Both the position numbers and the translations under genes were made by a program. Positions 407 to 46,400 of a stretch of DNA of 64,000 nucleotides are shown piece by piece. Source of the stretch: a virus (lineage: Duplodnaviria; Heunggongvirae; Uroviricota; Caudoviricetes); the IMG/VR virus record IMGVR_UViG_2724679237_000005, positions 44,631-108,630 of that record. The stretch is one strand, 5' to 3'. The notes below the pieces were generated by a model. That model worked only from the letters and a program-made list of their open reading frames with translations. It was not told where the DNA came from and made no database searches. How positions within the stretch are numbered: position 1 is the first letter of the stretch; each line of letters starts with the position of its first letter.

Positions 407-484
407 ATGTCATTTTTCTGTGATTGTTAGCCGAGGCAACGATAACCCACCAGGTGCGCCGAAGGTAGTAAATGCCTGTTTTAA

Positions 485-501
485 TTATTCACATATCCAC
501 A
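485..501. promoter_or_regulatory. two adjacent DnaA-box-like 9-mers (TTATTCACA, ATATCCACA)
   Basis: One mismatch each to DnaA box consensus TTATCCACA; located immediately left of GATC cluster and iterons. Confidence 0.5.
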
Positions 502-505
502 GGAT

Positions 506-565
506 AGATCCTAATAAAGAGATCCATAGATAGATCCTTGTATAGATCAAATAAGATCCCCGATC
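506..565. repeat. cluster of six GATC (Dam) sites in short AGATCC-type repeats, origin-like
   Basis: AGATCC at 506, 520, 532, 554; AGATCA at 544; GATC at 562; spacing 8-14 bp; same arrangement as methylation-sensitive origins of P1-type replicons. Confidence 0.5.
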
Positions 566-605
566 GCTGTAAGCCGCTCCACGACTGGTCTGAAGCCATG
601 TTCAT

Positions 606-710
606 GTATGCTGCCAGCGGTAATTGATAGTCTGTCAACGGTTCGCCGTATGCTGCCAACTGTTTTTGGTATGCTGCCAGCGGCAAATCAAGTATGCTGT
701 CAGCGGTTGA
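606..710. repeat. upstream iteron set, 4 copies of ~18-19 bp GTATGCTGYCAGCGGYDA
   Basis: Copies at 606-623, 648-660 (degenerate), 669-686, 692-710; same repeat recurs downstream of repA. Confidence 0.7.
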
Positions 711-727
711 ATGACAAAGGTGTCCAC

Positions 728-1822
728 ATGTCCACAAAAAATAAAAAAGGTAAAAATAACAAAGAAGTAGAAGATAATCTCGACAACTTTGAAGAAGGTT
801 CCCTTGAATTGTACACAGGGGAACTTGTCCCTAATAGCAACAATACAGTCCAACCAATTGCGTTGATGCGGCTGGGGTTGTTCGTGCCCACGCTCAAGGG
901 GACAAAATACAGCAAGCGTAACAAGCCAAATGAGATCGATGCTTCAAAGGAGCTTGTTCAGCTCGAAGTAGCCCGTTCTGAAGGCTATTCCGATATCAAG
1001 ATAACCGGTCCTCGTCTCGACATGGATCATGATTTCAAAACGTGGGTGGGCGTTGTGCGTTCGCTGGCAGAATACGGCGAACCTAACGGTCGTGTCGAGT
1101 TAAGCATCACGAAATTTGCGAAGTTTTGTGGCTATCCATCGTCACAGATCCGCAAAACACTCCGCGACCGGCTTACAAACAGTCTTTTGAAGATCATGCG
1201 TACAACTCTGTCTTTCCAGAGAACGTATGAAGAAAAGAACGTCGACGGCTCTAACAAGATCTCGCTTCTGATGGTGCACCTCATCAATAGCGTGGACTAC
1301 AACGAGCAGAAAGATACGGTGGTGTTCTATGCAGAACCGAAGCTGGCCGAACTATATCGCTTTGACCATAAGGTTCTTTTGCAGTTAAAGGTTATCAATA
1401 AGCTACCACGCAAAGAAACAGCACAGGCTCTGTACACCTTCATCGAAAGTCTTCCAACCAAGCCTGCGCCGGTATCGCTTGCTCGATTGCGTGCGCGACT
1501 CAATTTGAGTAGTAGGAATGTCAGCTCGCAGAATCAGACTATACGTAACGGCTTAAAAGCTCTCCAAGATTTGGGCTATCTCGAATACAGCGAGATTAAG
1601 CGTGGGCGGTCGATCTATATCCAGATTCACAGCCGCAATCCAAAACTCAAAGTCGCACCGCCAAAACCTGAAGACATCGAACCCAAAAAACCAGATGAGA
1701 AAGCTGGGGAAATTGATGCCAAACAGAACATTATCAACAAGATAACCGAACTTTCGCAGAATTTGACGCCTGAAAATATCAAGATGATTGAGATCCTTTC
1801 CAATAGTCTCAAACTGCTTTGA
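728..1822 (+). CDS. repA: RepA-like iteron-binding replication initiator
   Basis: Plus-strand ORF flanked on both sides by iteron arrays; ORF-track start at 608 lies inside the iterons, so the ATG at 728 (MSTKNKKGKNN) is the likely true start. Confidence 0.7.
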   Translation: MSTKNKKGKNNKEVEDNLDNFEEGSLELYTGELVPNSNNTVQPIALMRLGLFVPTLKGTKYSKRNKPNEIDASKELVQLEVARSEGYSDIKITGPRLDMDHDFKTWVGVVRSLAEYGEPNGRVELSITKFAKFCGYPSSQIRKTLRDRLTNSLLKIMRTTLSFQRTYEEKNVDGSNKISLLMVHLINSVDYNEQKDTVVFYAEPKLAELYRFDHKVLLQLKVINKLPRKETAQALYTFIESLPTKPAPVSLARLRARLNLSSRNVSSQNQTIRNGLKALQDLGYLEYSEIKRGRSIYIQIHSRNPKLKVAPPKPEDIEPKKPDEKAGEIDAKQNIINKITELSQNLTPENIKMIEILSNSLKLL

Positions 1823-2356
1823 TATGCTGTCAGCGGTGAAATGTATGCTATCAGCGGCTATTTTTCTGAAAAGTATGCTGTGAACGGTTAAAGATATGCT
1901 ACCAGCGGTATAGTGAGATGAACGTATGCTGTGAGCGGTAAATCATCTATCACCACTCAATGCTCTGTCATACCTCCCCAGTGGTTACTAACCTCGAAGA
2001 GTGCATTCCATATAGGTTTGCGCTCACTAACATTCTATTGCTATTGCGCTGATTGCTTGTAGTGAAAGGCATTTATTGCCTGCTGCTCCTGATAGAACGT
2101 ATGCTGTCAGAGGTGTTTTATTGAGGAATTTTTGTTTGGATATGCTATCAGCGGTAATTAATGGCATATGTCAGACCTTCGTATGCTGCCAGCGGTAATT
2201 TTGTTCTGGTTATACCCATACCGGTACATATTATTCATGCAATGTCTTAAGTATGCTGTCAGCGGTAAAAAATCGAGTAAAGTATGCTGTGAGCGGTGAG
2301 ATAGACTCTCGATATGCTATCAGCGGCAGTTGATTGTGTATGCTGTCAGCGGTGAC
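1823..2356. repeat. downstream iteron array, about 12 copies, incA-like copy-control locus
   Basis: Copies of (G/A)TATGCT(G/A)(T/C)(C/G)AGCGGT at 1823, 1844, 1874, 1896, 1924, 2099, 2141, 2182, 2252, 2282, 2313, 2338; irregular spacing, first copy overlaps repA stop. Confidence 0.7.
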
Positions 2357-2400
2357 GACTATGAAATATGACTGCGGAACGAGCCGCAGTCAGTTTGCAT

Positions 2401-2613
2401 TTAGTGTATTTTCTTCAACAGACCCCAAAGTGTTCCGGCTTTTGTAGTCAGTTTTCCTGTTTCTGGATCGTACATACGCCATTCACGCCGCTGGTGGACG
2501 ATATACCCATCTTCACGTTCCAGACGCTCAAGAACGCCAGGCTGCTTGAAACCCTTAGCACGCCAGTATCCGCTTGTTTTCTCGATTTCCAGACCTGCTA
2601 GTGTTAATGCCAT
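2401..2613 (-). CDS. hypothetical small protein (70 aa)
   Basis: ORF in same orientation as and overlapping (ATGA-type junction) the next gene; no recognisable motif. Confidence 0.4.
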   Translation of the reverse strand: MALTLAGLEIEKTSGYWRAKGFKQPGVLERLEREDGYIVHQRREWRMYDPETGKLTTKAGTLWGLLKKIH

Positions 2614-3494: not shown

Positions 3495-3920
3495 TCAATC
3501 TTCTTGTTTAGGGAAAAACTGTTCAATAACTCTGTCAACGGCTGTGTCTATATGGAGTAGATGCCACACAACCATATCTTTGCTCCCCATGCCTTGTGTG
3601 AATATCACGTCATACTTACGCCATGCGCAGTGGAACCAATATGCTGAGTCATCAATTGGTAAATCCTCTCCCGCCTCTTTGAAGTATTTCAGCAGCATTG
3701 CTTGCTCTGCCGTTGGCGTTGGGCCTATTTCCTGAGCGTACATACGGATAAATCGCTGCCAGTCTGTCTCGTCGGTGGTCGGATCTGGTGGATTCATTTC
3801 GGCGATAGCGTTTCGTAGCTGATGCGCCCAATCAGGTTCAGGAAAGCCTTTTGATACTTCATCATCAATAACATCCAGAGCCGCGTTTGCGGCATCGTAG
3901 AGTTTCTTAATTGCTGCCAT
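3495..3920 (-). CDS. hypothetical protein (141 aa)
   Basis: ORF in operon orientation; no recognisable domain. Confidence 0.5.
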   Translation of the reverse strand: MAAIKKLYDAANAALDVIDDEVSKGFPEPDWAHQLRNAIAEMNPPDPTTDETDWQRFIRMYAQEIGPTPTAEQAMLLKYFKEAGEDLPIDDSAYWFHCAWRKYDVIFTQGMGSKDMVVWHLLHIDTAVDRVIEQFFPKQED

Positions 3921-8705: not shown

Positions 8706-9875
8706 TCACGTCTTAATAGTTTCTGCTACGTCGGCTAATATCGCTTCTAGTCGTTCTCCCTCTTCAGGTCTGAAGTAAAGAATGTTGGGGTTAAACCCGT
8801 AAAAGACAGTAACGTCAAGGTCTGGAAGATACTCCTTCCTGCCGACCAAATCGGATGGCTTGTTTTTGTTGTTAAACAATGCCGTTGCCCGGCTGCCACA
8901 CGTCAGCACATAGGTCGGACGCACCAGATTGATCTCTTCACGTATAAAGTCGGTGAACTGGCCGATCTCGTCTTTGGTGTAGTCTTTTTCTTTGTCTTTA
9001 ACCTTCTTGCAAACGCCTGTGACATAGAGATCGCCCATGCGTAAATCTCCAGCCGTCAATAGCTTGGCCTTAAAGTCGTCGTATCCGTTCTCCATAAAGT
9101 AACCGGTTCGAGCATCATTGCCGTTCGCATTGTCCAGAATGATCATGATTTTCGGCTTAATACCAATGCTGGGGCGGATTAGTTCATCACCTAAGCCCAT
9201 TTCAGCCGCCATCCGCGTCATGAGTACGTTAATTTCAGCCGAACGTTTGGGGTTCATCTCAAACGAACGTGAGGCTTTAACTGCGTCTATGACAAGATTT
9301 CCCATCAATTCAGCCTGGTCGCGTAGGCGCTCTGGAGCAGTTGCTGGCAGACTACCTGGCTCGATGGATGCAAACGCCCCTACTTTTTGCAGCGATTCGC
9401 GCACTCGACTATTACAGGCACGTTTCTCGACAGCTTCTTCGAATTGCGCCAGTGACTCGAATTTGCCGCCAACTTTTTCTCGCGCTCTCATGATGGCTTG
9501 GCAGCCATTCTCAGAACACCCCTTCACAGCAGAGAATGGCGCATACAGCACCTGGCTGCCATCTTCAAGCGTGCGGATCTCGATTCGGTTAGATGACACG
9601 TTAACGTCTGGTGGCAATACGCGAATTCCATAGGTCAGCGCATCTTTAACCAGCCCTTGGTGTTTATCTTCGCCAAGAATAGTGAGAGCAGCAGCGAAAA
9701 ACTCTGCGGGATAATGAGTTTTCAACCACATAGATTGATAACTGATTAAGGAGTAAGCAACAGAGTGTGATTTGTTGAAGGCATACGCGCCGGATTTCTC
9801 AAACATATTCCAGATTTCTTCGGCTCGTTCGTGCGTCAGGCCATTGCTCTCTTCAACTACACTGGTAATTTTCAT
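8706..9875 (-). CDS. dnaE: DNA polymerase III alpha (DnaE), C-terminal fragment
   Basis: Contains the DnaE fingers signature AYAFNKSHSVAYSLISYQSMWLKTHYPAEFFAA; own ATG overlapping stop of HNH ORF. Confidence 0.8.
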   Translation of the reverse strand: MKITSVVEESNGLTHERAEEIWNMFEKSGAYAFNKSHSVAYSLISYQSMWLKTHYPAEFFAAALTILGEDKHQGLVKDALTYGIRVLPPDVNVSSNRIEIRTLEDGSQVLYAPFSAVKGCSENGCQAIMRAREKVGGKFESLAQFEEAVEKRACNSRVRESLQKVGAFASIEPGSLPATAPERLRDQAELMGNLVIDAVKASRSFEMNPKRSAEINVLMTRMAAEMGLGDELIRPSIGIKPKIMIILDNANGNDARTGYFMENGYDDFKAKLLTAGDLRMGDLYVTGVCKKVKDKEKDYTKDEIGQFTDFIREEINLVRPTYVLTCGSRATALFNNKNKPSDLVGRKEYLPDLDVTVFYGFNPNILYFRPEEGERLEAILADVAETIKT

Positions 9876-10606
9876 TCAGTCACCTCATCAATCTTCACGA
9901 ACTCATACCCATTGGAGGCCAGCCAGTCCCGCTGGCGCTCCCAGCTCCATACCTTTTCACGCATTTCGCTATGCAGGCGAATGTGGGCGTCTTCTGGAAG
10001 TGCCACCAGATTCCCAGGGGCGTTATCTACCGTATCGCGGTTAATATGGTGGACATGTTCATCGTCACGTAGCTCCCGACCGAGACGTTCTTTCGCTATC
10101 AACCGATGAACGTATTCGTATTGCGAAACGCCATTGTTACCAACCAGCTGCATCATGTAGCCGTTGGTTTTTACGATGATGCCATCTTTGTAGTTGTTCG
10201 CTTCTTCTCCGATCTTTCCGCGTTTGGCAGCCGCCAGCTTTTCCTTCGTCTCCGCGCGGATTGTTCTGCCGGTTAGCTTTTTCGAAACGGTGGCCACTCG
10301 CTCATCGATATCAGCACGCAGACCGGCATTCCACGAGGTTTTCCCATACATAGGGTTGCCAGTGCCAGTCCGGGCTTCGGAGAGTCGCTTCATACGTTCG
10401 TCATTATTTTTGTTTTTGCCACGATTCCAGGCTGGGGTAGCGGAGATCCGCGCGTTTCCGCGCCTGATCCCCCATTTGGCTAATAAGCGGTCAATATTTG
10501 CCTTGCTGCAACCAGCTTCGGCGGCAATGTCTTCTTTTCTCATCAGGTCAACCATGTAACGCTGACGTAACCATTCTTCTGTGATTTTGTACTTCGTACT
10601 CGGCAT
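9872..10606 (-). CDS. HNH homing endonuclease inserted within dnaE
   Basis: C-terminal HNH motif EHVHHINRDTVDNAPGNLVALPEDAHIRLH; N-terminal NUMOD-like stretches (GKTSWNAGL, RAETKEKLAAAKRG); sits between the two dnaE fragments. Confidence 0.8.
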   Translation of the reverse strand: MPSTKYKITEEWLRQRYMVDLMRKEDIAAEAGCSKANIDRLLAKWGIRRGNARISATPAWNRGKNKNNDERMKRLSEARTGTGNPMYGKTSWNAGLRADIDERVATVSKKLTGRTIRAETKEKLAAAKRGKIGEEANNYKDGIIVKTNGYMMQLVGNNGVSQYEYVHRLIAKERLGRELRDDEHVHHINRDTVDNAPGNLVALPEDAHIRLHSEMREKVWSWERQRDWLASNGYEFVKIDEVTE

Positions 10607-10654
10607 TTCTAAGACTCACTAAACAAATTGTTTTCTTATCTTATAAATTAATTC

Positions 10655-13018
10655 TCAAATATCGAAGCTCGTTATGTCGGCATTTATTGCCATTGCTTCG
10701 GCATAAGTGCGACGCTCACCATCAGCACAAAGTAGGCGTGCTGCTTTATGGATTTTTCTCGTAGAACCGTCATCCAGTGACACTGTCACCCAGCCTTCCT
10801 CCGCTCGCTTAATGAAGTCGCCGCCAATGGATTTCATTTTCTCCATATCTTTTTTCCCGATCGCTTTCCTGACCGAGTCTGCTTCCGCCATTGAGAACCC
10901 CGCCAAGATTCGCGTAGCAGCCATGATCTGTTCCTGATAAATCAGAACACCGTTTGTGTCGCGAGAGATGTCGTCCAGCATAGGGTGTAAGGAATGTGGA
11001 GCCATGAAGCCTTTGGCCACGGAGACATAGTCGTCCAACATGCCGGATTGAATCGGGCCTGGTCGGAAGAGTGCGGTCGTGGCGACAACGGTCTTGAAGC
11101 TCATTGGCTCGATGCCACCGCCCAGATCTTTAAGCAACTTACGCATGGGGCCGGACTCCAGCTGGAATACGCCCTGCGTGTACCCTGCAGCGAACCCATC
11201 CAGAACCTTGCGATCGTCCAGTGGGATAGCGTCGAGATTGATATCTTCACCTGTGTTCTCTTTTATGTAGCGTTTTGCACTATCGAGCAAATCGAGAGTT
11301 GCCAGGCCAAGCACGTCCAGCTTAATTAGGCCCATAGCCTCGCAGTAACGCTTGTCAAATGCGATACAACGCGCGTCACCACGTCGTTCAACCGGTGTAC
11401 GTTCTGTCAGAGGAACACCTGCTACGATCATCCCTGCCGCATGTCTACCAAAGCCACGCATAAGGCTTTGTAACTTGCAGGCTGCATTGAATGCATCAGG
11501 ATATTTTGTTGCGTATTTGTCGAGACTTGCCAGTTGTTCGCGCAGTTCTTCCAATGGAAGGCTATCATCCTCAGCGTTCTTCAGTTCTTTTGATACCGCC
11601 ATATCTGCGGACTCCACACCATAAATACGAGCGGTGTCACGTAGTGCAGAGGCTGCGCCCAGGTAGGTGAAGTTCGGAATGCCTGCAACGTAATCTTCGC
11701 CGTAGCGTTCATTCAGATACTCGATCACCTCATGGCGACGTGCCTGGCTGAAGTCCAAATCCGCATCTGGCAAGTCGAGACGCTCAGGGTTGATGAAACG
11801 CTCAAACAGAAGACCGTGACGGATTGGGTCGACGTTGGTTATGCCTATGCACCACGCCACCAGAGAACCGGCAGAGGAACCACGACCAGGCCCAACGGGA
11901 ATGCCAGTTTCACGACTATGATTCATCAGATCGCGCACCATCAGGAAGTAACCACAGAATCCCAGGCGAGTCAGCGTGTCCATTTCGTACTTTAGCCGCT
12001 CAACATAAACCCTGTTCTCAGAAGCAGGTGGTGTGTATCCAAACTCTTTTGTGGTAAGACGTTTACGCAGCCCTGCAACAGCCAGTTTCATCAGCGTTGC
12101 AGGTTCGTCGTCTGCCATCTTGGGCAGTGCTGGTGGCAATTCATGCCAGCGCCATGTGCAGGAATCGATAATGGTATCCTGCGTTGTTGAGGCCATTGCA
12201 GCTGTTACAGGCACATCCATGCGAACGGAGAAGGCTTTAAGCGCCTCAAGGAGATGGCGGCGACCATTGACGGCGTTATCTCGCTGGTGGGGGATACGCA
12301 GACGATGCGGCTGGTCGATTTTGATGTTGTTCGTAACCATGTGCGCAATGTCTTTAATGTCTGCATCGTCGATCGATTCGTAATAAGCGGGATAGAACGC
12401 CACTGGCTCTATTTTCAATGCGCTGGCGACTTTCATCGCCCGGACGTTAATCTGGTCGTAGAATGGGGTAGGGTGCGGATAAACCACACTATAGAAGTTG
12501 TCTTTTCCACCCGCTGTAATCAGTGTGCTTATGATTTTTGCAAAATCGTTGCGTTGGAACACGCTACCGATGTCGGAAGTAAGCAGGATGATGTTGCCTT
12601 TGGCATATGTAGAAACCAACTGTTCGAGCGAGAGACGCGGTACAAAGTAGAACTGTTCTCGTGTGTTGGCCGCCGTCATTAGTTCGCAGATGTCGCGATA
12701 TCCTTGCTCATTTTTAATTAGAGCGGTAAACGAGTAGTTACGTCCCCGCTCTAATGATTCCATACATCTCATAGATTCTTTAGCAAGTTTAGCCCGGTGC
12801 TCGTATGTGGGATCATCAACAATGTTTAGTTTCACACCACAAATAACCGCCATGTCGTCACCAGCGGCACGTTGTAGTGGAATAACGCTCGCAATATTCA
12901 TGCTATCTGCTGAAATTACAGCGGTGTAGCCAGCTTCTCTGGCAATCTTCACCGCGTTTTCTGCTTTTAGAGCCGACTCCCCAAGTGAGAAGTCAGTTCG
13001 AACCATCAGTGCCTTCAT
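10655..13018 (-). CDS. dnaE: DNA polymerase III alpha (DnaE), N-terminal fragment (PHP and polymerase core)
   Basis: Palm motif GYFLMVRDLMNHSRETGIPVGPGRGSSAGSLVAWCIGITNVDP and LFERFINPERLDLPDADLDF; ends just before the fingers FNKSHS motif, which is found in the downstream fragment. Confidence 0.85.
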   Translation of the reverse strand: MKALMVRTDFSLGESALKAENAVKIAREAGYTAVISADSMNIASVIPLQRAAGDDMAVICGVKLNIVDDPTYEHRAKLAKESMRCMESLERGRNYSFTALIKNEQGYRDICELMTAANTREQFYFVPRLSLEQLVSTYAKGNIILLTSDIGSVFQRNDFAKIISTLITAGGKDNFYSVVYPHPTPFYDQINVRAMKVASALKIEPVAFYPAYYESIDDADIKDIAHMVTNNIKIDQPHRLRIPHQRDNAVNGRRHLLEALKAFSVRMDVPVTAAMASTTQDTIIDSCTWRWHELPPALPKMADDEPATLMKLAVAGLRKRLTTKEFGYTPPASENRVYVERLKYEMDTLTRLGFCGYFLMVRDLMNHSRETGIPVGPGRGSSAGSLVAWCIGITNVDPIRHGLLFERFINPERLDLPDADLDFSQARRHEVIEYLNERYGEDYVAGIPNFTYLGAASALRDTARIYGVESADMAVSKELKNAEDDSLPLEELREQLASLDKYATKYPDAFNAACKLQSLMRGFGRHAAGMIVAGVPLTERTPVERRGDARCIAFDKRYCEAMGLIKLDVLGLATLDLLDSAKRYIKENTGEDINLDAIPLDDRKVLDGFAAGYTQGVFQLESGPMRKLLKDLGGGIEPMSFKTVVATTALFRPGPIQSGMLDDYVSVAKGFMAPHSLHPMLDDISRDTNGVLIYQEQIMAATRILAGFSMAEADSVRKAIGKKDMEKMKSIGGDFIKRAEEGWVTVSLDDGSTRKIHKAARLLCADGERRTYAEAMAINADITSFDI

Positions 13019-17200: not shown

Positions 17201-17587
17201 ATGTCTGACAACAAGATTGAATTTATAGAAAGTCGCTATGCTGCTTTTATCGCAGGGCTGATTGAATCCTCACCTATGAGTCAGGCCCAAATAGCCAGAC
17301 TTATTGGTTATAAAAATGCCAACAACCTTTCTTTAATTAAAAGTGGCAAAATTCCTTTGCCTATCGATAAGGTTCGTCCGCTGGCGCTGGCGCTGGGTAT
17401 TGAGCCAAGTCGTCTTATGATGATGGTGCTGGAAGAACGCCAACCTGAACTCGCAGCATTTTTATACAAAGAAGGCACCGCTCCTCTTAACGAGGACGAA
17501 AAACAGGTTCTTGCTGCATATAACGAGCGATTCGGTAAAGAGAAAGGCGCATCACAAAAGGTTGTTGAGGCCATAAAGTCTCTATGA
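17201..17587 (+). CDS. XRE-family helix-turn-helix transcriptional regulator (repressor-like)
   Basis: HTH segment SQAQIARLIGYKNANNLSLIKSG; convergent with the recombinase gene. Confidence 0.6.
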   Translation: MSDNKIEFIESRYAAFIAGLIESSPMSQAQIARLIGYKNANNLSLIKSGKIPLPIDKVRPLALALGIEPSRLMMMVLEERQPELAAFLYKEGTAPLNEDEKQVLAAYNERFGKEKGASQKVVEAIKSL

Positions 17588-18685
17588 AAAATTTACACGA
17601 ATAAGCTCTGTTGATAGACGATCTCCCTTGAATTTGTGGTCAATTTCGTCTAAATCCGGTTGCTCTACGATTGATGCGATGTACGTCGAGAAACTTTCTA
17701 AGGCGTCTCGCATCTCGTCCATATAATCGTGCCGGTCGTAGACCCGATCTATCCCCTCAAGACTGTGGTTCATGATTTTGCGTGATACCTCCTGGCTTAT
17801 GCCTAATGCTGGGAAGTAACTACGCGCAGTACGGCGCAAATCTCGGGGTGTAAATGGCTCAAGCTCCATCAGTTCTGGTCGTTCCAGAATACGACGTAAT
17901 GCCTGGGCTATTGCCACTTTAGACATAGGAAGGTCTTTCCCGATTTTTTTATTCGAAGGCACGAGCCACTGGCTATCTTTACCGTATTCGAACAACTCTT
18001 CAATGCATGTGCGCATTAATGTGCTTAAAGGCAGCGAATGCTCACGTGCTGACTTGTTTCTTTTGCCTTGATTCCAAACCCCACGCTTAAGATTGAACTC
18101 ACTTTTTTTAGCCCGCAGTACTTCGTCAGGTCGTCTTGCTGATACAAGACACAGCCTGGCCGCCCATTTTGTACCAGCGCACACATTGAAGTAGTCCCAT
18201 ATATTCCAGAACACCCATACCTCTGCGTCGGTCAGCTTCCGCTCGCGAGGTGTGGGCTTTGCGCCACCGGCAACTTTGTTTAGTGACATATCGTTTAACG
18301 GTGACACGTCTATCATTCCCTGGAAGGCGCACCAGCTAAGGAACTGCTTCATCAGAGAGAAAACGCGGCGGCCCATAACAATTTTGCCATCCAGTATTAG
18401 TGGGTTGACCAGTTGGTTCACCATGAACCTATTAATGTCACTTACTTTTACATCGGCAATGTGCGGCAAAACATGTATCAAAATACAATGAACAGCGATC
18501 TCTGGCCGACGTCTTGTTATCAGCAGAGATAAGCGAGTGAATAACATGAATGCGTCCGAGAATCTCATGTCATTGCTGACCTGGGAGATCATAACGGCCT
18601 GCATTTGAGATGCTCTTTCGAGATACTCAATCGCCTCTTTTGAGGTGTTCTCCGCAGCGCGTGCTCTGTCAAAGCTATTTTTCAT
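17582..18685 (-). CDS. tyrosine site-specific recombinase (integrase/resolvase family)
   Basis: C-terminal catalytic region with RDLRRTARS, HSLEGIDRVYDRHDY (His-x-x-Arg and Tyr nucleophile pattern). Confidence 0.75.
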   Translation of the reverse strand: MKNSFDRARAAENTSKEAIEYLERASQMQAVMISQVSNDMRFSDAFMLFTRLSLLITRRRPEIAVHCILIHVLPHIADVKVSDINRFMVNQLVNPLILDGKIVMGRRVFSLMKQFLSWCAFQGMIDVSPLNDMSLNKVAGGAKPTPRERKLTDAEVWVFWNIWDYFNVCAGTKWAARLCLVSARRPDEVLRAKKSEFNLKRGVWNQGKRNKSAREHSLPLSTLMRTCIEELFEYGKDSQWLVPSNKKIGKDLPMSKVAIAQALRRILERPELMELEPFTPRDLRRTARSYFPALGISQEVSRKIMNHSLEGIDRVYDRHDYMDEMRDALESFSTYIASIVEQPDLDEIDHKFKGDRLSTELIRVNFS

Positions 18686-32014: not shown

Positions 32015-32052
32015 ATGCATTGGCGCAATGTACGCGCCAATGCATGATTTTT
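32015..32052 (+). terminator. rho-independent terminator after GIY-YIG gene
   Basis: ATGCATTGGCGC-AATGTAC-GCGCCAATGCAT perfect 12-bp stem followed by GATTTTT. Confidence 0.55.
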
Positions 32053-32410
32053 AACCTTTCTTCATCAACTCTCGTTTGATTTCATCGGTACGCATCGTGA
32101 CATCGGCAGCGGTGATCGCCTCATTCAATTTCACGATGTCCTCGATTTCCTGCGGTGACTTCTCTGCCAGATGGAAAATGGCTGCTCGAATCACGTCAGA
32201 ACGAGTGAACTTCTCGAAGCGAGGGATGAACTTCATCATCTCCAGCAGTTCGAAGTATTCGTCCTCCAGTGACATTGTGCGGCTTTTAATTTTCTCTTTG
32301 CCACGAGTCGGGCGTCCCTGTGGTCTGACTGGTTGGCGCAAAGGAGTTGTGTTCTTAGCCGGTGCATCAGGCTCTTTGCGCTTTGCTAGGTCACCCATTT
32401 TCATGGACAT
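32051..32410 (-). CDS. small partition protein, ParG/ribbon-helix-helix-like centromere binder (putative)
   Basis: 119-aa basic N-terminus, translationally coupled directly downstream of parA as in type Ib partition systems. Confidence 0.45.
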   Translation of the reverse strand: MSMKMGDLAKRKEPDAPAKNTTPLRQPVRPQGRPTRGKEKIKSRTMSLEDEYFELLEMMKFIPRFEKFTRSDVIRAAIFHLAEKSPQEIEDIVKLNEAITAADVTMRTDEIKRELMKKG

Positions 32411-33078
32411 TATTCTTCTTCCTCCAGACTCAACAGATAATCTACAAATTCTTCAAACTCGGCTTCCGCCTTTTTGTCGCGCTCGCTACCGGTCATTTCA
32501 AAGATAGAACGACCAGACTCTTCCGCATCATCATAGACGTTGCGGTTATATAGATTGACTGGCGCAGACTCGATTCCAAACGTCTCAACAATCTCTTTAG
32601 CCGCCAGAATGCGAGACACTTGTGATGGCAAAGCCGGGCACTGGTTCATGACCGCGCGGACCTTCACTTTATCGTTTACATTGCGAACATTGTCGATAAT
32701 AGGATCGATGTCACGTAAAGATTTCAAATCACGACGCTTAGGACGCAGCGGGATAATGATAACGTCAGCCATCAGCATCGCTTGTCGCTGAATTTCGGAG
32801 TCAAAGCCACCAGCATCTACCACTACATACTCAGCTCTACCCTGAAGCGATTTTAGGTGCTTAATGATGTCATCCTGAACGTATGCAAAAGGAATCAGCT
32901 CAAGGTCTTCGTTCTGTCGACGGTCTTCACACCAGCTCGTTGTCGTGCGCTGAATATCTATATCGGTGATATAAACCTTCTTCTTCTTTTTGACTTTCAG
33001 GCAAACGGCAATTTGCTGGGCAACGGTGGATTTGCCAGGCCCGCCCTTTGTGCCGCCAACCACAAAGATCTTGGTCAT
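32410..33078 (-). CDS. parA: ParA partition ATPase (small, type Ib)
   Basis: Deviant Walker A GGTKGGPGKST; 222 aa. Confidence 0.8.
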   Translation of the reverse strand: MTKIFVVGGTKGGPGKSTVAQQIAVCLKVKKKKKVYITDIDIQRTTTSWCEDRRQNEDLELIPFAYVQDDIIKHLKSLQGRAEYVVVDAGGFDSEIQRQAMLMADVIIIPLRPKRRDLKSLRDIDPIIDNVRNVNDKVKVRAVMNQCPALPSQVSRILAAKEIVETFGIESAPVNLYNRNVYDDAEESGRSIFEMTGSERDKKAEAEFEEFVDYLLSLEEEE

Positions 33079-44600: not shown

Positions 44601-46400
44601 GATGCGAACGCGCATAGGTTCGAGATCTGGTTCTGTAATTGTCCAGACACCGTTCAAAACAGGCGTTTCCGCTGACGACAGGGCTTTTGAAAACGTAACC
44701 TTTGTTATGTTTTCGCCAGTTTCAAGAACATCGCGTTCAACGATTTTGCCTTCCTGATTCAATATCCGAATAAAGCTGCCGCTTTTAGCTAACGACACAG
44801 GCGCATCGAGAGTGATGCTGTTTTTGGTAAACTCCACAATTCGACCGGAGTTACGTTTACCTGCACGATATTTGTTCTGAATCAGAACGGTTTCACCAGG
44901 CATCAGAAATGAGGCGTCTAAGCCGGCAGTAAATGTAATTACATCCGACTCCATTCTGGCGGTATACAAAAGCCACAAACCAACTCGGTGAGCCTGGCCT
45001 CGGCTTGTACATCCAAATGCTACGACTTCTGTTTTACGCTCACCATAACGGCGCATTGCGTCCTGATCTTCAACGTATTCGATGTTTTGCTTATAACCGT
45101 CCTCCTTGTTGTTGTAGGTTACGAGCGCAACGGATGGGCGATCTTTACGCGCAGAACCTTTATAGGTAAACAGTCCATCTTTGACGTTGGAGTTGGTAAA
45201 CATCATTACCGGATCTGATGGGCTATCCTGCATGATGTTAACCATGCCACCAGCCCAAAACACCATGCCGCGGAATGCACCGGCAATATCCTGAATTAAT
45301 CGGTATGCGTCTTGTCGACTGGTGATCTGCGTATTGATTGCAAAGCGTTTCTCTTTACCCCCAAAGCCATCATCGACCTCTTCGTCACAATATCGACCAA
45401 TCTGGTAGAGCTGGCCGAGGTCAATCATGGATTCCGACACAAATTGCCCAAGACCATACCGAGTATTGGTAAGCAAATCGTAGAGAATCCACGCAGGGTT
45501 TGAAGAAGACAACAGCTTAAAAGTACCGTCCCATACGCCGACATAAGTATTGGTGTATTCGTTGTAGTTTGACGGTACTCGGATTTTGATACCGCGCACC
45601 AAATACGAACGGGAAGGCATTGTGCTACCAAACTGCTCTGAATTGACCTTCAAGCCAACAAGAGCAGAGTTAGGGTAGTTCATTGGCGTGTCGACAATCT
45701 CACCTATGGAATCAACCCATGTGTCGTTGTAGAGGTACTGGCTACTGTTATCATCTGTAAGACGAATCACCCTAACCTTGTATGCACGACCAGGCTTAGG
45801 TAGTTTCAGCTCATAGCTACGGTAATACACGCCTGTTTTCTTTGCCGTTAGCGTGATATCAACGCTTTTTTCACCTTCAGCGACCACATCTACAAATGTT
45901 GAGTCGCCATTTGCTATCTGGAACTTGTACTCAACAGTCGTACCGTTCGTGTCACCAGTTTTTTTATCTATGCTTCGCAAAGAAGGAAACTTCATGATGA
46001 CACGAACCCGATCAGCTTCATCGTTATCGATTGAAACCGTTACATAATGTGTTTTTTTTAACTGGATATTGACGGATTTAGGCGTTTCAACGAAATCAAA
46101 GCCAGACATTGGAGTCTGGTCTTGTGAACCGTCGCGAAAATCCCATGTGATTCCGCTGAAGTTGGAGGAACCGTCTTCATTTACAATCGGCAGATCGTCG
46201 ATAAAAATAGATCTTGCGCCATTTACTAAGCCGCCAATTACCCCTTCCCCAAGAAGATCGAGGATAGCGGCCATTGCACGAGAATTTACGGTATCGTCGG
46301 CTTCAACCGGTGTACGGCTGGAGCTTTTGCTGCTTTTTTTACCACCCGCACCGGCAATAAACAGCGGTAGCTTTTTCTTCTTGAACTGTTCCATGTTCAA
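41667..46400 (-). CDS. J: central tail fibre / tip attachment protein J-like
   Basis: Strong similarity to lambda J core (ALVGLKVNSEQFGS, AFGCTSRGQAHRVGLWLL, KYVAGIALGIDT...SQFLV); contains a run of 33-aa coiled-coil repeats. Confidence 0.8.
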   Translation of the reverse strand: MNMEQFKKKKLPLFIAGAGGKKSSKSSSRTPVEADDTVNSRAMAAILDLLGEGVIGGLVNGARSIFIDDLPIVNEDGSSNFSGITWDFRDGSQDQTPMSGFDFVETPKSVNIQLKKTHYVTVSIDNDEADRVRVIMKFPSLRSIDKKTGDTNGTTVEYKFQIANGDSTFVDVVAEGEKSVDITLTAKKTGVYYRSYELKLPKPGRAYKVRVIRLTDDNSSQYLYNDTWVDSIGEIVDTPMNYPNSALVGLKVNSEQFGSTMPSRSYLVRGIKIRVPSNYNEYTNTYVGVWDGTFKLLSSSNPAWILYDLLTNTRYGLGQFVSESMIDLGQLYQIGRYCDEEVDDGFGGKEKRFAINTQITSRQDAYRLIQDIAGAFRGMVFWAGGMVNIMQDSPSDPVMMFTNSNVKDGLFTYKGSARKDRPSVALVTYNNKEDGYKQNIEYVEDQDAMRRYGERKTEVVAFGCTSRGQAHRVGLWLLYTARMESDVITFTAGLDASFLMPGETVLIQNKYRAGKRNSGRIVEFTKNSITLDAPVSLAKSGSFIRILNQEGKIVERDVLETGENITKVTFSKALSSAETPVLNGVWTITEPDLEPMRVRIVNIAQGETPGSFDITAVENNPSKYEAIDNGATLIPQNTTVLDPTYSKPSNLQITEGTYLSSPGNLSVKLTATWEGKSPEYWISWRRSDENNVSNWQSARVTEEQYEIVNVAENGRYDFQLYAVSFNGKKTEIISTVYQVLGTMTPPDAPTSLTAVGDYRNVILNWVNPDSVDLDHINVYASQTNNLDTAKLIAESASTTFTHAGLGDSETWYYWVRASNKRGMLSPPNSNLGTEATTRDVLSFLAGKITSSELGQALLEDINSKASQEAVDELNEHINQSVESLEGSVNDVKEDIAELDKQFSDNLAGFEIKFNERSDALENAQTELKGEVSATIDKVNEAFEKIDATDAAIVEIENTVSEHDKALANTVEAIKAARDEAAALIAKESEARVEGDAANAKQLEVLQSTVEESSAAVEEMKKTVAEVDRASAELTTNIEALAKTNIDLALRQDEDQHKQMVNNAKIATTQKTFADDMSAMATKVEEIRVEIGEDIKASILEESTARADGDEALAKRVTQLQSKFEGDISAAISTEQEARTSADEALTTQITQLESKVSNDIVAAIKEEQEARATEDSALASQITQLQAKVDDDISAAIRSEQEARASGDSALAKQINQLQSKVDGDISAAITQEQEARASADQALSREINSLRAQTGTDIAAAVAVETKARTDADSALSTQISSLTAKANDLEASLARETTARADGDTALTKEVSSLKAQTAKDISAAVAVETQARTDADSALSSQITKLTSQYKEDIKAAVATETKTRTEQDAALATQITNLESQTAANISAAVTTETTARTQADNALSGRIDTLKAEVDGNTATIQQQATAIADTNKKVSTAWTLKMETSTSGGQKYVAGIALGIDTTGLSQFLVQADRFGLVNSVNGKITTPFVIENSIAYMNGAYIKDGTITNAKVGDLQSTNFVSGRSGWRFGKNGTLEINGNSGGNGRLVINGQRIDVYDDNNVLRVRIGLL

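Follow-up and report, generated by a model that had tools for sequence, protein, structure and literature searches.

Positions 485 to 2357 of the window (the whole 64-kb stretch of DNA analyzed here) very probably form the entire replicon by which a common E. coli phage-plasmid, an SSU5-like element of the pECOH89/p09EL50 lineage, is maintained as a plasmid; the replicon belongs to the P1 RepA/RepFIB iteron family. DnaA boxes, GATC heptamers, a GC-rich spacer, iterons, repA, and more iterons follow one another in this order (Table 1). All features listed in the initial annotation lie where it placed them or no more than a few bases away. The initial annotation had recognized here the oriR/incC-repA-incA architecture of the P1 family, and this reading is borne out by RepA homology, by nucleotide-level alignment of the origin, and by the placement of the iteron arrays. 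Alignment with P1 and related phage-plasmid replicons, which the same annotation had proposed as a check, returned the same order of parts together with a homologous RepA and origin. The replicon is a true and quite ordinary relative of those of phage P1 and of IncFIB plasmids; it is already catalogued, though undissected, and its family is textbook. Because RepA is slightly nearer to IncFIB RepA (approximately 50% identity) than to that of P1, "P1/RepFIB" is a more accurate family label than P1 alone.

TABLE 1 Features of the replicon and of associated loci in the window
Feature	Position	Strand	Remarks
Two tandem putative DnaA boxes	485..501	+	TTATTCACA and ATATCCACA, sharing one base; outer end of origin
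GATC heptamer block	503..566	+	Six Dam sites; A+T-rich, 36% GC
GC-rich spacer	567..605	+	GCTGTAAGCCGCTCCACGACTGG; 54% GC; between heptamers and iterons
Five direct iterons, incC-like	606..711	+	Starts 607, 628, 649, 670, 693; spacing 21/21/21/23 bp
Two tandem TGTCCACA motifs	720..736	+	9-mers GTGTCCACA and ATGTCCACA; overlap repA start codon
repA	728..1822	+	364 aa; predicted iteron-binding initiator, P1 RepA/RepFIB family
incA-like control array, block 1	1822..1943	+	Five direct iterons: 1823, 1844, 1874, 1895, 1925
Non-iteron insert	1944..2098		155 bp; splits downstream array
incA-like control array, block 2	2099..2357	+	Seven direct iterons: 2100, 2141, 2182, 2252, 2283, 2313, 2339
Terminator-like GC-rich hairpin	2369..2392		9 pairs; T runs on both strands
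Likely partition locus	32051..33078	-	ParA-type ATPase 32410-33078 (222 aa) and partner ORF 32051-32410 (119 aa)

The repA reading frame chosen in the initial annotation is a sensible one, with AAGG 7 nucleotides upstream of its ATG, and its product matches the family. RepA is recognized by Pfam Rep3_N (3.9e-9; 37.5 bits, cut-off 22.4) and by PHROG 775 (4.6e-133), with no match in NCBIfam. Membership in an unrelated family, the outcome said at the outset to count against a P1-type replicon, was not what we found: in tblastn searches, residues 32 to 309 align with the RepA proteins of P1 and P7 at 43.5% identity (E value, 2e-64), identity to SSU5 RepA is 47.9%, and more than 5,000 plasmid records match, among them IncFIB plasmids (typed as such by MOB-suite), which supply the approximately 50% identical proteins. 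An alignment of nine family members spans the full 286 amino acids of P1 RepA and contains 68 invariant columns. Relative to P1 RepA, the protein is about 30 residues longer at the N terminus and carries a RepFIB-like C-terminal tail of about 55 amino acids, which P1 RepA lacks. Some depositors name the gene "repFIB replication protein A." Searches of PDB sequences with RepA alone and with the nine-sequence family profile returned nothing meaningful and no solved close relative. In relatives, PGAP annotates a 404-amino-acid repA open reading frame starting at the equivalent of position 608; this longer frame is most likely an artifact, because four of the five origin iterons hold an in-frame ATG, spaced in multiples of three.

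Upstream of the iterons, the origin aligns with those of known family members. TTATTCACA (485-493) conforms to TTWTNCACA, which has only four matches on both strands of the window, and ATATCCACA (493-501) agrees with TTATCCACA at eight of nine positions. In alignments, these boxes, already noted in the initial annotation and indeed tandem, fall on the site annotated for DnaA binding in P1 oriR (AF234172, 62891-62908) and on the boxes present in IncFIB origins. The six GATC sites likewise noted there in short repeats are present, at 507, 521, 533, 545, 555, and 562, within the heptamers TAGATCC, GAGATCC, TAGATCC, TAGATCA, and AAGATCC and the additional CCGATCG. The cluster is unique, as three or more GATC sites per 60 bp occur nowhere else in the window, and six within 60 bp (59 bp here) arose in 1 of 2,000 random placements. 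The five Dam sites annotated in P1 oriR line up with this block column by column, and the block is kept in Klebsiella pJN2-26, pCFSAN004177P_01, IncFIB plasmids, RCS47, and JK004; strand opening and sequestration by SeqA presumably both take place here. A Dam-like methylase (DPPY motif) is not among the proteins encoded in the window. The spacer is also conserved (GTTGCAGGCCGCGCCACGTCTGG in P1). At the inner end of the origin, the two TGTCCACA motifs account for all but one of the three copies found on both strands of the window, and the 9-mers containing them each match the DnaA box at seven of nine positions. A Klebsiella relative has GTATCCACA, an eight-of-nine match, at the equivalent position, and P1 and JK004 have CTATCCACA and TTATCCACA approximately 27 nucleotides upstream of repA. 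These motifs are possibly weak inner DnaA boxes, an assignment that we consider tentative.

The iteron core TATGCTGYCAGCGGT, allowing up to three mismatches, gave 19 matches where 2.6 ± 1.8 were expected, a number reached in 0 of 100 shuffles; 17 of the 19 lie on the plus strand beside repA. The array upstream of repA had been described with four members, and the array stands, but the count does not: we find five, the copy at 628-642 being degenerate here (three mismatches) and better preserved in p09EL50 and PhiR41_1 (two mismatches). Presumably, the repA promoter is embedded in this array. A promoter scan found no consensus sigma-70 promoter on the plus strand upstream of repA or among the origin iterons, and the elements located where P1 has PrepA are weak (TTGGTA-16-TCAAGT), so autorepression of repA is proposed by analogy. 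An inverted near-copy of iteron 3 and its flank inside repA (1060-1083 versus 640-663; 18 of 19 over the core) did not look like a chance occurrence, but we rejected it as a conserved site, given drift at synonymous positions in Klebsiella pJN2-26 and pCFSAN004177P_01.

Downstream of repA, the "about twelve" iterons first reported proved to be exactly twelve, all direct, running from 1823 to 2357. The repA stop codon is immediately followed by the first of them, a placement shared with copy 9 of P1 incA. In the deposited phage PhiR41_1, exactly 87 bp (three iterons) are missing between the copies at 2252 and 2339, so that the array numbers 12 iterons here, 9 in PhiR41_1, 8 in Klebsiella, and 4 on a non-phage plasmid. 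A freely varying array length is nevertheless a weakened proposal: the sampled plasmids retain the full 661-bp region, with PhiR41_1 the exception found. Across lineages, the iteron core is TATGCTGYCAGCGGT here and in Klebsiella, ATGTGTGCTGGAGGG in P1 and JK004, GTTGACTGTACGCGA in RCS47, and ACCACTRTAGAGAG in SSU5; iteron sequence and RepA lineage therefore co-vary within an architecture that is retained.

An entirely different identity for these repeats is implied by the annotation of Klebsiella phage pJN2-26 (MZ779062), in which two 20-bp copies are labeled attR and attL. We give almost no credence to phage attachment sites flanking repA: the pJN2-26 locus holds 13 copies and the present one 17, rather than two; they occupy the positions of the RepA-binding iterons of P1; there is no adjacent integrase; and every occurrence in E. 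coli is extrachromosomal. A less distant alternative accepts the repeats as iterons and denies the downstream array a role in negative copy control; the array might instead act, for example, as a centromere-like site, start replication as a second origin, or simply soak up RepA without pairing. The uniformly direct orientation, the 155-bp insert, and an irregular spacing that ranges from 21 to 175 bp are unlike P1 incA, and no partition centromere was found near the ParA gene, as such a reading might lead one to expect. We nonetheless judge it quite improbable, since the downstream core is that of the origin iterons, making RepA the expected ligand, and the array shares with P1 incA its exact starting point, the stop codon of repA. 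Neither DnaA boxes nor a GATC cluster lies beside it, and natural variants with 12, 9, 8, and 4 copies imply that the number of repeats is not essential.

Negative copy control by the downstream iterons is thus the preferred reading, although the control region is not a simple copy of incA, because all twelve iterons are direct and the insert interrupts the array. The insert contains no iteron at up to three mismatches, has no Rfam match, finds no aligned counterpart in the Klebsiella relative, and folds modestly (z of -2.2 and -1.3); it is kept in approximately 120 near-identical plasmids. It is conceivable, but on balance unlikely, that the region is more than a P1-style incA and that the insert carries an extra regulatory element. 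If so, a promoter or small transcript might be located there, for example, or a binding site coupling copy control to the lysis-lysogeny state of the phage. In the same unlikely reading, the natural variants in iteron number could set differing copy numbers, which would be relevant to the dosage of resistance genes borne on these phage-plasmids.

By homology with P1 oriR, we infer DnaA- and Dam-dependent initiation, autorepression, and handcuffing for this replicon, each biochemical step being modeled on that system. RepA monomers would fill the five 21-bp-phased iterons of the origin, and host DnaA would bind the tandem boxes at its outer end and possibly the weak boxes at 720-736. Opening would need full Dam methylation of the six GATC sites; once the fork had passed, the hemimethylated sites would be sequestered by SeqA, preventing immediate re-firing. 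RepA bound to the origin iterons would repress the repA promoter. The twelve downstream iterons would bind further RepA and pair with the origin iterons ("handcuffing"), which would shut off initiation as copies build up and so hold the prophage at low copy number.

The distribution of the replicon is that of a plasmid. At least 80% of the region is present in 115 of 5,426 complete E. coli genomes, and of the 273 matching places in such genomes, every one is on a plasmid and none is on a chromosome. Many plasmids, p09EL50 among them, match at 98.7 to 99.4% identity over 2.1 kb; the downstream array of pECOH89 (NC_023916) is 98.8% identical over its full length, and the replicon of phage PhiR41_1 is 98.6% identical. 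Because every E. coli occurrence is plasmid-borne and a deposited phage carries a near-identical replicon, maintenance of the element as a plasmid prophage, as first suggested from the sequence, is supported. These matches place the element with pECOH89 and p09EL50 in one lineage of SSU5-like phage-plasmids (MOB-suite rep_cluster_488). pECOH89 and p09EL50 have identical RepA proteins, which are 48% identical to pLF82 RepA, and some members of the lineage bear extended-spectrum β-lactamase (ESBL) genes, such as CTX-M-15 in pECOH89 (PMC3999498). A pLF82-type replicon was considered for the present element and rejected, as phage Cyrano (108,379 bp, as pLF82) has an SSU5-type RepA with 47.9% identity.

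The element also encodes its own DnaE, DnaB-like helicase, and RecA, as well as ligase and toprim proteins, and has other, presumably lytic, modes of replication. So large a replication gene set would fit a scenario in which the replicon is a relic and the element is maintained as a plasmid from another origin by means of its own DnaE, DnaB-like helicase, and primase. In phage P1, oriR serves the plasmid state, and the lytic replicon is separate. The P1 annotation thus offers a precedent for a similar division of labor here, and we regard a relic as very unlikely on other grounds as well: neither repA nor any of the 17 iterons is disrupted, and they are 97 to 99% conserved in approximately 120 plasmids; rep_cluster_488 is the sole replicon typed in p09EL50 and pECOH89; and the cassette is also present on a non-phage plasmid. 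This 34.7-kb plasmid has homology to exactly positions 478 to 1895 of the window, a stretch that opens with the DnaA boxes and closes with the fourth iteron downstream of repA; these positions would be the natural limits of a minimal cassette.

On its right, the replicon appears to be bounded by the terminator-like hairpin, which would separate it from a converging cra-like gene (2401-2613, minus strand). A type Ia parA-parB-parS locus directly after the downstream array is absent, and small reverse-strand open reading frames are found there instead. Linkage of parABS to incA is a trait of phage P1 itself and not of the replicon family. Of the "ParA pair" placed further right in the initial annotation, one member holds: the 222-amino-acid protein matches Pfam AAA_31, MipZ, CbiA, and ParA, and the window encodes no other ATPase with a deviant Walker A motif. 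The second gene is the 119-amino-acid open reading frame, which has no Pfam match, and no centromere repeats were found near the small ParA gene. The two genes are likely a partition locus that is separate from the replicon and not P1-like.

The replicon adds no new scientific principle. Copy number, incompatibility, and stable inheritance would all depend on it in a lineage found in approximately 2% of complete E. coli genomes. The map of its origin and iterons corrects two recurrent annotation errors, namely, the 404-amino-acid RepA start running through the iterons and the labeling of iterons as attL and attR. The minimal cassette could be used for vector or curing work.

Compared with P1 and P7, the order of parts is identical, including five 21-bp-phased iterons and an array starting at the repA stop codon. 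The P1 record annotates, in the same order, a DnaA site, five Dam sites (six here), five incC iterons, repA, and nine incA iterons, and the non-iteron half of P1 oriR (DnaA boxes, GATC heptamers, and GC-rich spacer) aligns base by base with the origin described here. The incC phasing is 21/21/21/22 in P1 and 21/21/21/23 here. The iteron cores are related (TGTGCTGGAGGG versus TATGCTGYCAGCGG); because the iteron sequence nevertheless differs, the two replicons are presumed to differ in incompatibility. Downstream, P1 has nine iterons, three direct and six inverted, whereas the twelve here are all direct and split by the insert, and parA-parB-parS directly follows incA in P1, while the small ParA gene lies 30 kb off in the present element.

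The IncFIB/RepFIB replicons (F/P307 type and Klebsiella IncFIB) have the closest initiators outside the phage-plasmids, and these initiators share with the RepA described here a variable C-terminal tail. Their origins have in common a module of DnaA boxes, five GATC sites, and spacer, aligning base by base with the present one, followed by four or five 21-bp-phased iterons, with iterons again after repA. The iteron cores of the two plasmids examined are ATAAACTGTAGT and CATACCGCAGTC, in contrast to TATGCTGYCAGCGGT; the shared iteron sequence of classical IncFIB incompatibility specificity is therefore not found here, and MOB-suite types the present replicon separately. The IncFIB downstream arrays examined are short (three to four copies) and include inverted copies, and their carrier is a conjugative F-type plasmid rather than a phage-plasmid. 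Inverted iterons indeed occur in the arrays of SSU5, RCS47, JK004, P1, and IncFIB, and none downstream of repA here.

SSU5 and pLF82 (phage Cyrano) have a replicon of the same family in the same slot, between a 645-bp upstream open reading frame and the cra-like gene. The SSU5 flanks are 73 to 77% identical to those of the present element, and Cyrano is 99% identical over 100 bp at the cra-like gene (2401-2500 in the window), the only stretch that matches. SSU5 differs in having unrelated iterons, a mixed downstream orientation, and a tandem duplicate of the origin module. Because the flanks are shared, while the RepA proteins are only 47.9% identical and the iterons unrelated, the replicon cassette has been exchanged within a conserved backbone. 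SSU5-like backbones thus swap replicon cassettes of a single family, an exchange by which related phage-plasmids can probably coexist.

Within the window, the TATGCTGYCAGCGGT repeat (up to three mismatches) occurs 19 times, a count not attained in any of 100 shuffles (expectation, 2.6 ± 1.8); 17 of the 19 lie on the + strand around repA. An initial annotation had placed a P1-type replicon here, with four iterons upstream of repA and about twelve downstream. Twelve downstream iterons were indeed mapped, between 1823 and 2339, and the upstream array is also present; however, it contains five iterons rather than four, the lower count reflecting the degeneracy of the copy at 628. Most downstream spacings correspond to whole helical turns (21, 30-31, and 41 bp), with exceptions of 26, 70, and 175 bp.

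Features of the replicon and of associated loci in the window
Feature	Position	Strand	Remarks
DnaA box 1	485-493		TTATTCACA; fits relaxed DnaA box TTWTNCACA
DnaA box 2	493-501		ATATCCACA; 8/9 to TTATCCACA
GATC sites	507, 521, 533, 545, 555, 562		six, 3' of DnaA boxes
Upstream iterons	607, 628, 649, 670, 693	+	five, spacing 21/21/21/23 bp
Tandem TGTCCACA motifs	721-736		two copies, overlapping repA start
repA	728-1822	+	
Downstream iterons	1823, 1844, 1874, 1895, 1925; 2100, 2141, 2182; 2252, 2283, 2313, 2339	+	twelve
Non-iteron insert	1944-2098		155 bp, splits downstream array
Gene abutting replicon	2401-2613	-	P1 Cra (Cre-associated)-like in relatives' annotation
dnaE, C part	8706-9875	-	389 aa; HHH_6
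Homing-endonuclease gene	9872-10606		inside dnaE; HNH_3+NUMOD3
dnaE, N part	10655-13018	-	787 aa; PHP, alpha, finger domains
Tyrosine recombinase	17582-18685	-	Phage_integrase domain
ParA-type ATPase	32410-33078	-	222 aa; only such ATPase found
ParA partner ORF	within 32051-33078	-	119 aa, no Pfam family

The non-iteron insert has no Rfam match and folds unremarkably; it is kept across the E. coli lineage and has no counterpart in the Klebsiella relative. Separately, iteron 3 and its 9-nt 5' flank (640-663, + strand) have an inverted near-copy inside the repA coding sequence (1060-1083, - strand), identical at 18 of 19 positions over 640-658 and unlikely to have arisen by chance. We rejected this near-copy as a conserved site: in Klebsiella phage pJN2-26 and plasmid pCFSAN004177P_01 it is kept no further than coding constraint.

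Both DnaA boxes and all six GATC sites named in the initial annotation were recovered. TTWTNCACA has only four matches on the two strands of the 64-kb window. GATC has a mean density of 4.2 per kb, and no other place in the window has three or more sites within 60 bp; random placement gave six in 60 bp in 1 of 2000 trials, placing the cluster beyond chance. Five of the six sites sit within (T/G/A)AGATC(C/A) heptamers, and CCGATCG surrounds the remaining one; all fall in an A+T-rich block (36% GC). The tandem TGTCCACA motifs had been missed; this octamer occurs three times in the whole window. The same place is occupied by GTATCCACA in the Klebsiella relative, and P1 and JK004 carry (C/T)TATCCACA about 27 nt before repA. 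Tentatively, the pair may represent weak inner DnaA boxes.

The repA reading frame proposed earlier is upheld, with AAGG preceding its start at the right distance. A longer ORF (608-1822), corresponding to the PGAP annotation in relatives, is solely a product of the upstream array: of its five iterons, four contain an ATG in frame, at intervals divisible by three. RepA matches Pfam Rep3_N, the WH1 domain of iteron initiators (37.5 bits; cut-off, 22.4), and PHROG 775 (4.6e-133). In tblastn searches of phages, it is 43.5% identical to RepA of P1 and P7 (E value, 2e-64), 41% to the RCS47/SJ46 type, 47.9% to SSU5 and Cyrano, and 85 to 87% to Klebsiella SSU5-like proteins. A search of plasmids returned at least 5000 matching records; among the matches listed, identity is about 50% for those that carry a RepB-family or RepFIB RepA annotation, and the retrieved records of two of these are typed IncFIB. 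An alignment of nine RepA sequences has 68 invariant columns and spans all 286 aa of the P1 protein. P1 lacks a C-terminal tail (about 55 aa) that the window RepA has in common with RepFIB and SSU5 proteins, among which it varies. No solved structure was detectable by sequence search. RepA is a P1-family initiator and, given its identity to the P1 and P7 proteins, not a member of an unrelated family.

A 2.1-kb region spanning the replicon is 98.6 to 99.6% identical to the deposited phage PhiR41_1 (~108 kb) and to approximately 120 PLSDB plasmids, mostly 100 to 115 kb and nearly all non-mobilizable, from E. coli, E. albertii, Shigella, and Salmonella. These include p09EL50 (E. coli O104:H4) and pECOH89, for both of which rep_cluster_488 is the sole MOB-suite type. 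We take the PlasmidFinder name to be IncFIB(H89-PhagePlasmid), because pECOH89 carries the replicon and this label is used in the literature. The region (at least 80% of its length) is present in 115 of 5,426 complete E. coli genomes, where plasmids account for all 273 matching places and chromosomes for none. Elsewhere, the window carries phage and replication genes for RecA, a FEN-type exonuclease, DnaE, a DnaB-like helicase, and tail, portal, and terminase proteins in synteny with p09EL50, which identifies the element as an SSU5-like phage-plasmid. Falgenhauer et al. related pECOH89, a phage-like plasmid, to SSU5, pHCM2, and pLF82; its RepA was identical to the p09EL50 protein and shared 48% identity with the pLF82 protein (PMC3999498). 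In the literature searched, we found no paper on the iterons or origin of this replicon and no co-occurrence of SSU5, phage-plasmid, and iterons; none of the relatives' records inspected carries iteron annotation. The replicon is a catalogued (rep_cluster_488) yet undissected member of a textbook family.

Natural variants differ mainly in the downstream array. In PhiR41_1 (PV340561, 4061 region), exactly 87 bp are deleted from one iteron to an identical one relative to window 2252-2339, so that three downstream iterons are missing and 9 remain versus 12. Elsewhere in the E. coli lineage the array is stably complete, about 120 plasmids keeping every iteron; pJN2-26 has eight. A replicon with an 86% identical RepA (rep_cluster_488) also occurs in CP012496 (pCFSAN004177P_01, 1251-2677), a non-phage plasmid whose 34.7 kb also include ccdAB and replicons of the IncFIA and IncFIC types. 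Homology to the window has exact limits, 478 at the DnaA boxes and 1895 at the fourth downstream iteron; the plasmid has only four iterons downstream of repA. These limits are a natural delimitation of the cassette and suggest that the full downstream array is dispensable, although the other replicons of this plasmid qualify the point. In the pJN2-26 record (MZ779062), two of 13 RepA iterons (2378-2397 and 3648-3667) are labelled attR and attL, almost certainly a mis-annotation.

The probable partition locus (32051-33078, - strand) consists of the ParA-type ATPase gene and its partner ORF. No obvious centromere repeats were found near the ParA gene; in p09EL50, two ParB/Srx-domain genes adjoin the terminase genes. 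Since the replicon was extrachromosomal wherever it occurred in E. coli, the tyrosine recombinase may resolve dimers. Relatives encode a phage-type N6-adenine methyltransferase (p09EL50 [NC_018651], 44738-45331, outside the window), called "dam" (PMC3999498); none of this type is encoded inside the window. Depending on its specificity, the relatives' enzyme could methylate the origin GATC cluster independently of the host. The dnaE gene (Pol III alpha; 8706-13018, - strand) is parted into two ORFs by an inserted homing-endonuclease gene; they align to residues 1-782 and 795-1172 of the single 1172-aa coding sequence in p09EL50.

The mechanism of P1 oriR is known from the Chattoraj, Abeles, and Austin laboratories, and P1 record AF234172 also carries functional notes. 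By analogy, RepA monomers would likely fill the five origin iterons and DnaA would bind its boxes; the A+T-rich heptamer block would open if fully Dam-methylated and, when hemimethylated, be sequestered by SeqA. RepA on the origin iterons would repress repA, and the downstream iterons would titrate RepA and pair with the origin iterons, blocking initiation at higher copy number. Among the origin iterons no consensus promoter was found, and the hexamers at the P1 PrepA positions are weak.

SSU5 (JQ965645) carries two tandem origin-module copies upstream of repA (2266-2500 and 2645-2900). Either copy comprises one or more DnaA boxes, GATC heptamers, a spacer, and some five iterons. Six GATCs persist in the distal copy, which is 77% identical to the window flank and origin, and the heptamers of the repA-proximal copy have decayed.

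Read in repA orientation, AF234172 presents two tandem DnaA boxes, five Dam sites, five incC iterons holding PrepA, repA, and nine incA iterons, the last overlapping the repA stop codon, followed by parA, parB, and parS. The order of parts in P1 oriR-repA-incA is identical to that in the window, as the initial annotation proposed. Alignment with P1 and related replicons revealed nucleotide-level homology in the non-iteron half of the origin, where P1 CACTTATCCACATTATCCACTGGATAGATCCAATAAT...GATCCCTGATCGTTGCAGGCCGCGCCACGTCTGG aligns with AATTATTCACATATCCACAGGATAGATCCTAATAAA...GATCCCCGATCGCTGTAAGCCGCTCCACGACTGG in the window. This module is also found in two IncFIB plasmids, the P1-like phages RCS47 and JK004, pJN2-26, and SSU5. 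Iteron sequence varies by RepA lineage, with number and phasing constant, as expected for co-evolving initiator-site pairs. P1 differs in having three direct and six inverted downstream iterons, whereas all twelve are direct in the window; SSU5, RCS47, JK004, and the IncFIB plasmids have mixed orientations, and the all-direct pattern is common only to the close Klebsiella and pCFSAN004177P_01 relatives. P1 also has five GATCs rather than six, shorter RepA termini, and a ParA of about 400 aa with ParB and parS, in contrast to a 222-aa ParA-type ATPase not adjacent to the replicon. Sequence comparison places the replicon in the P1 RepA/RepFIB family, marginally nearer RepFIB, and we infer that it works like P1 oriR-repA-incA.
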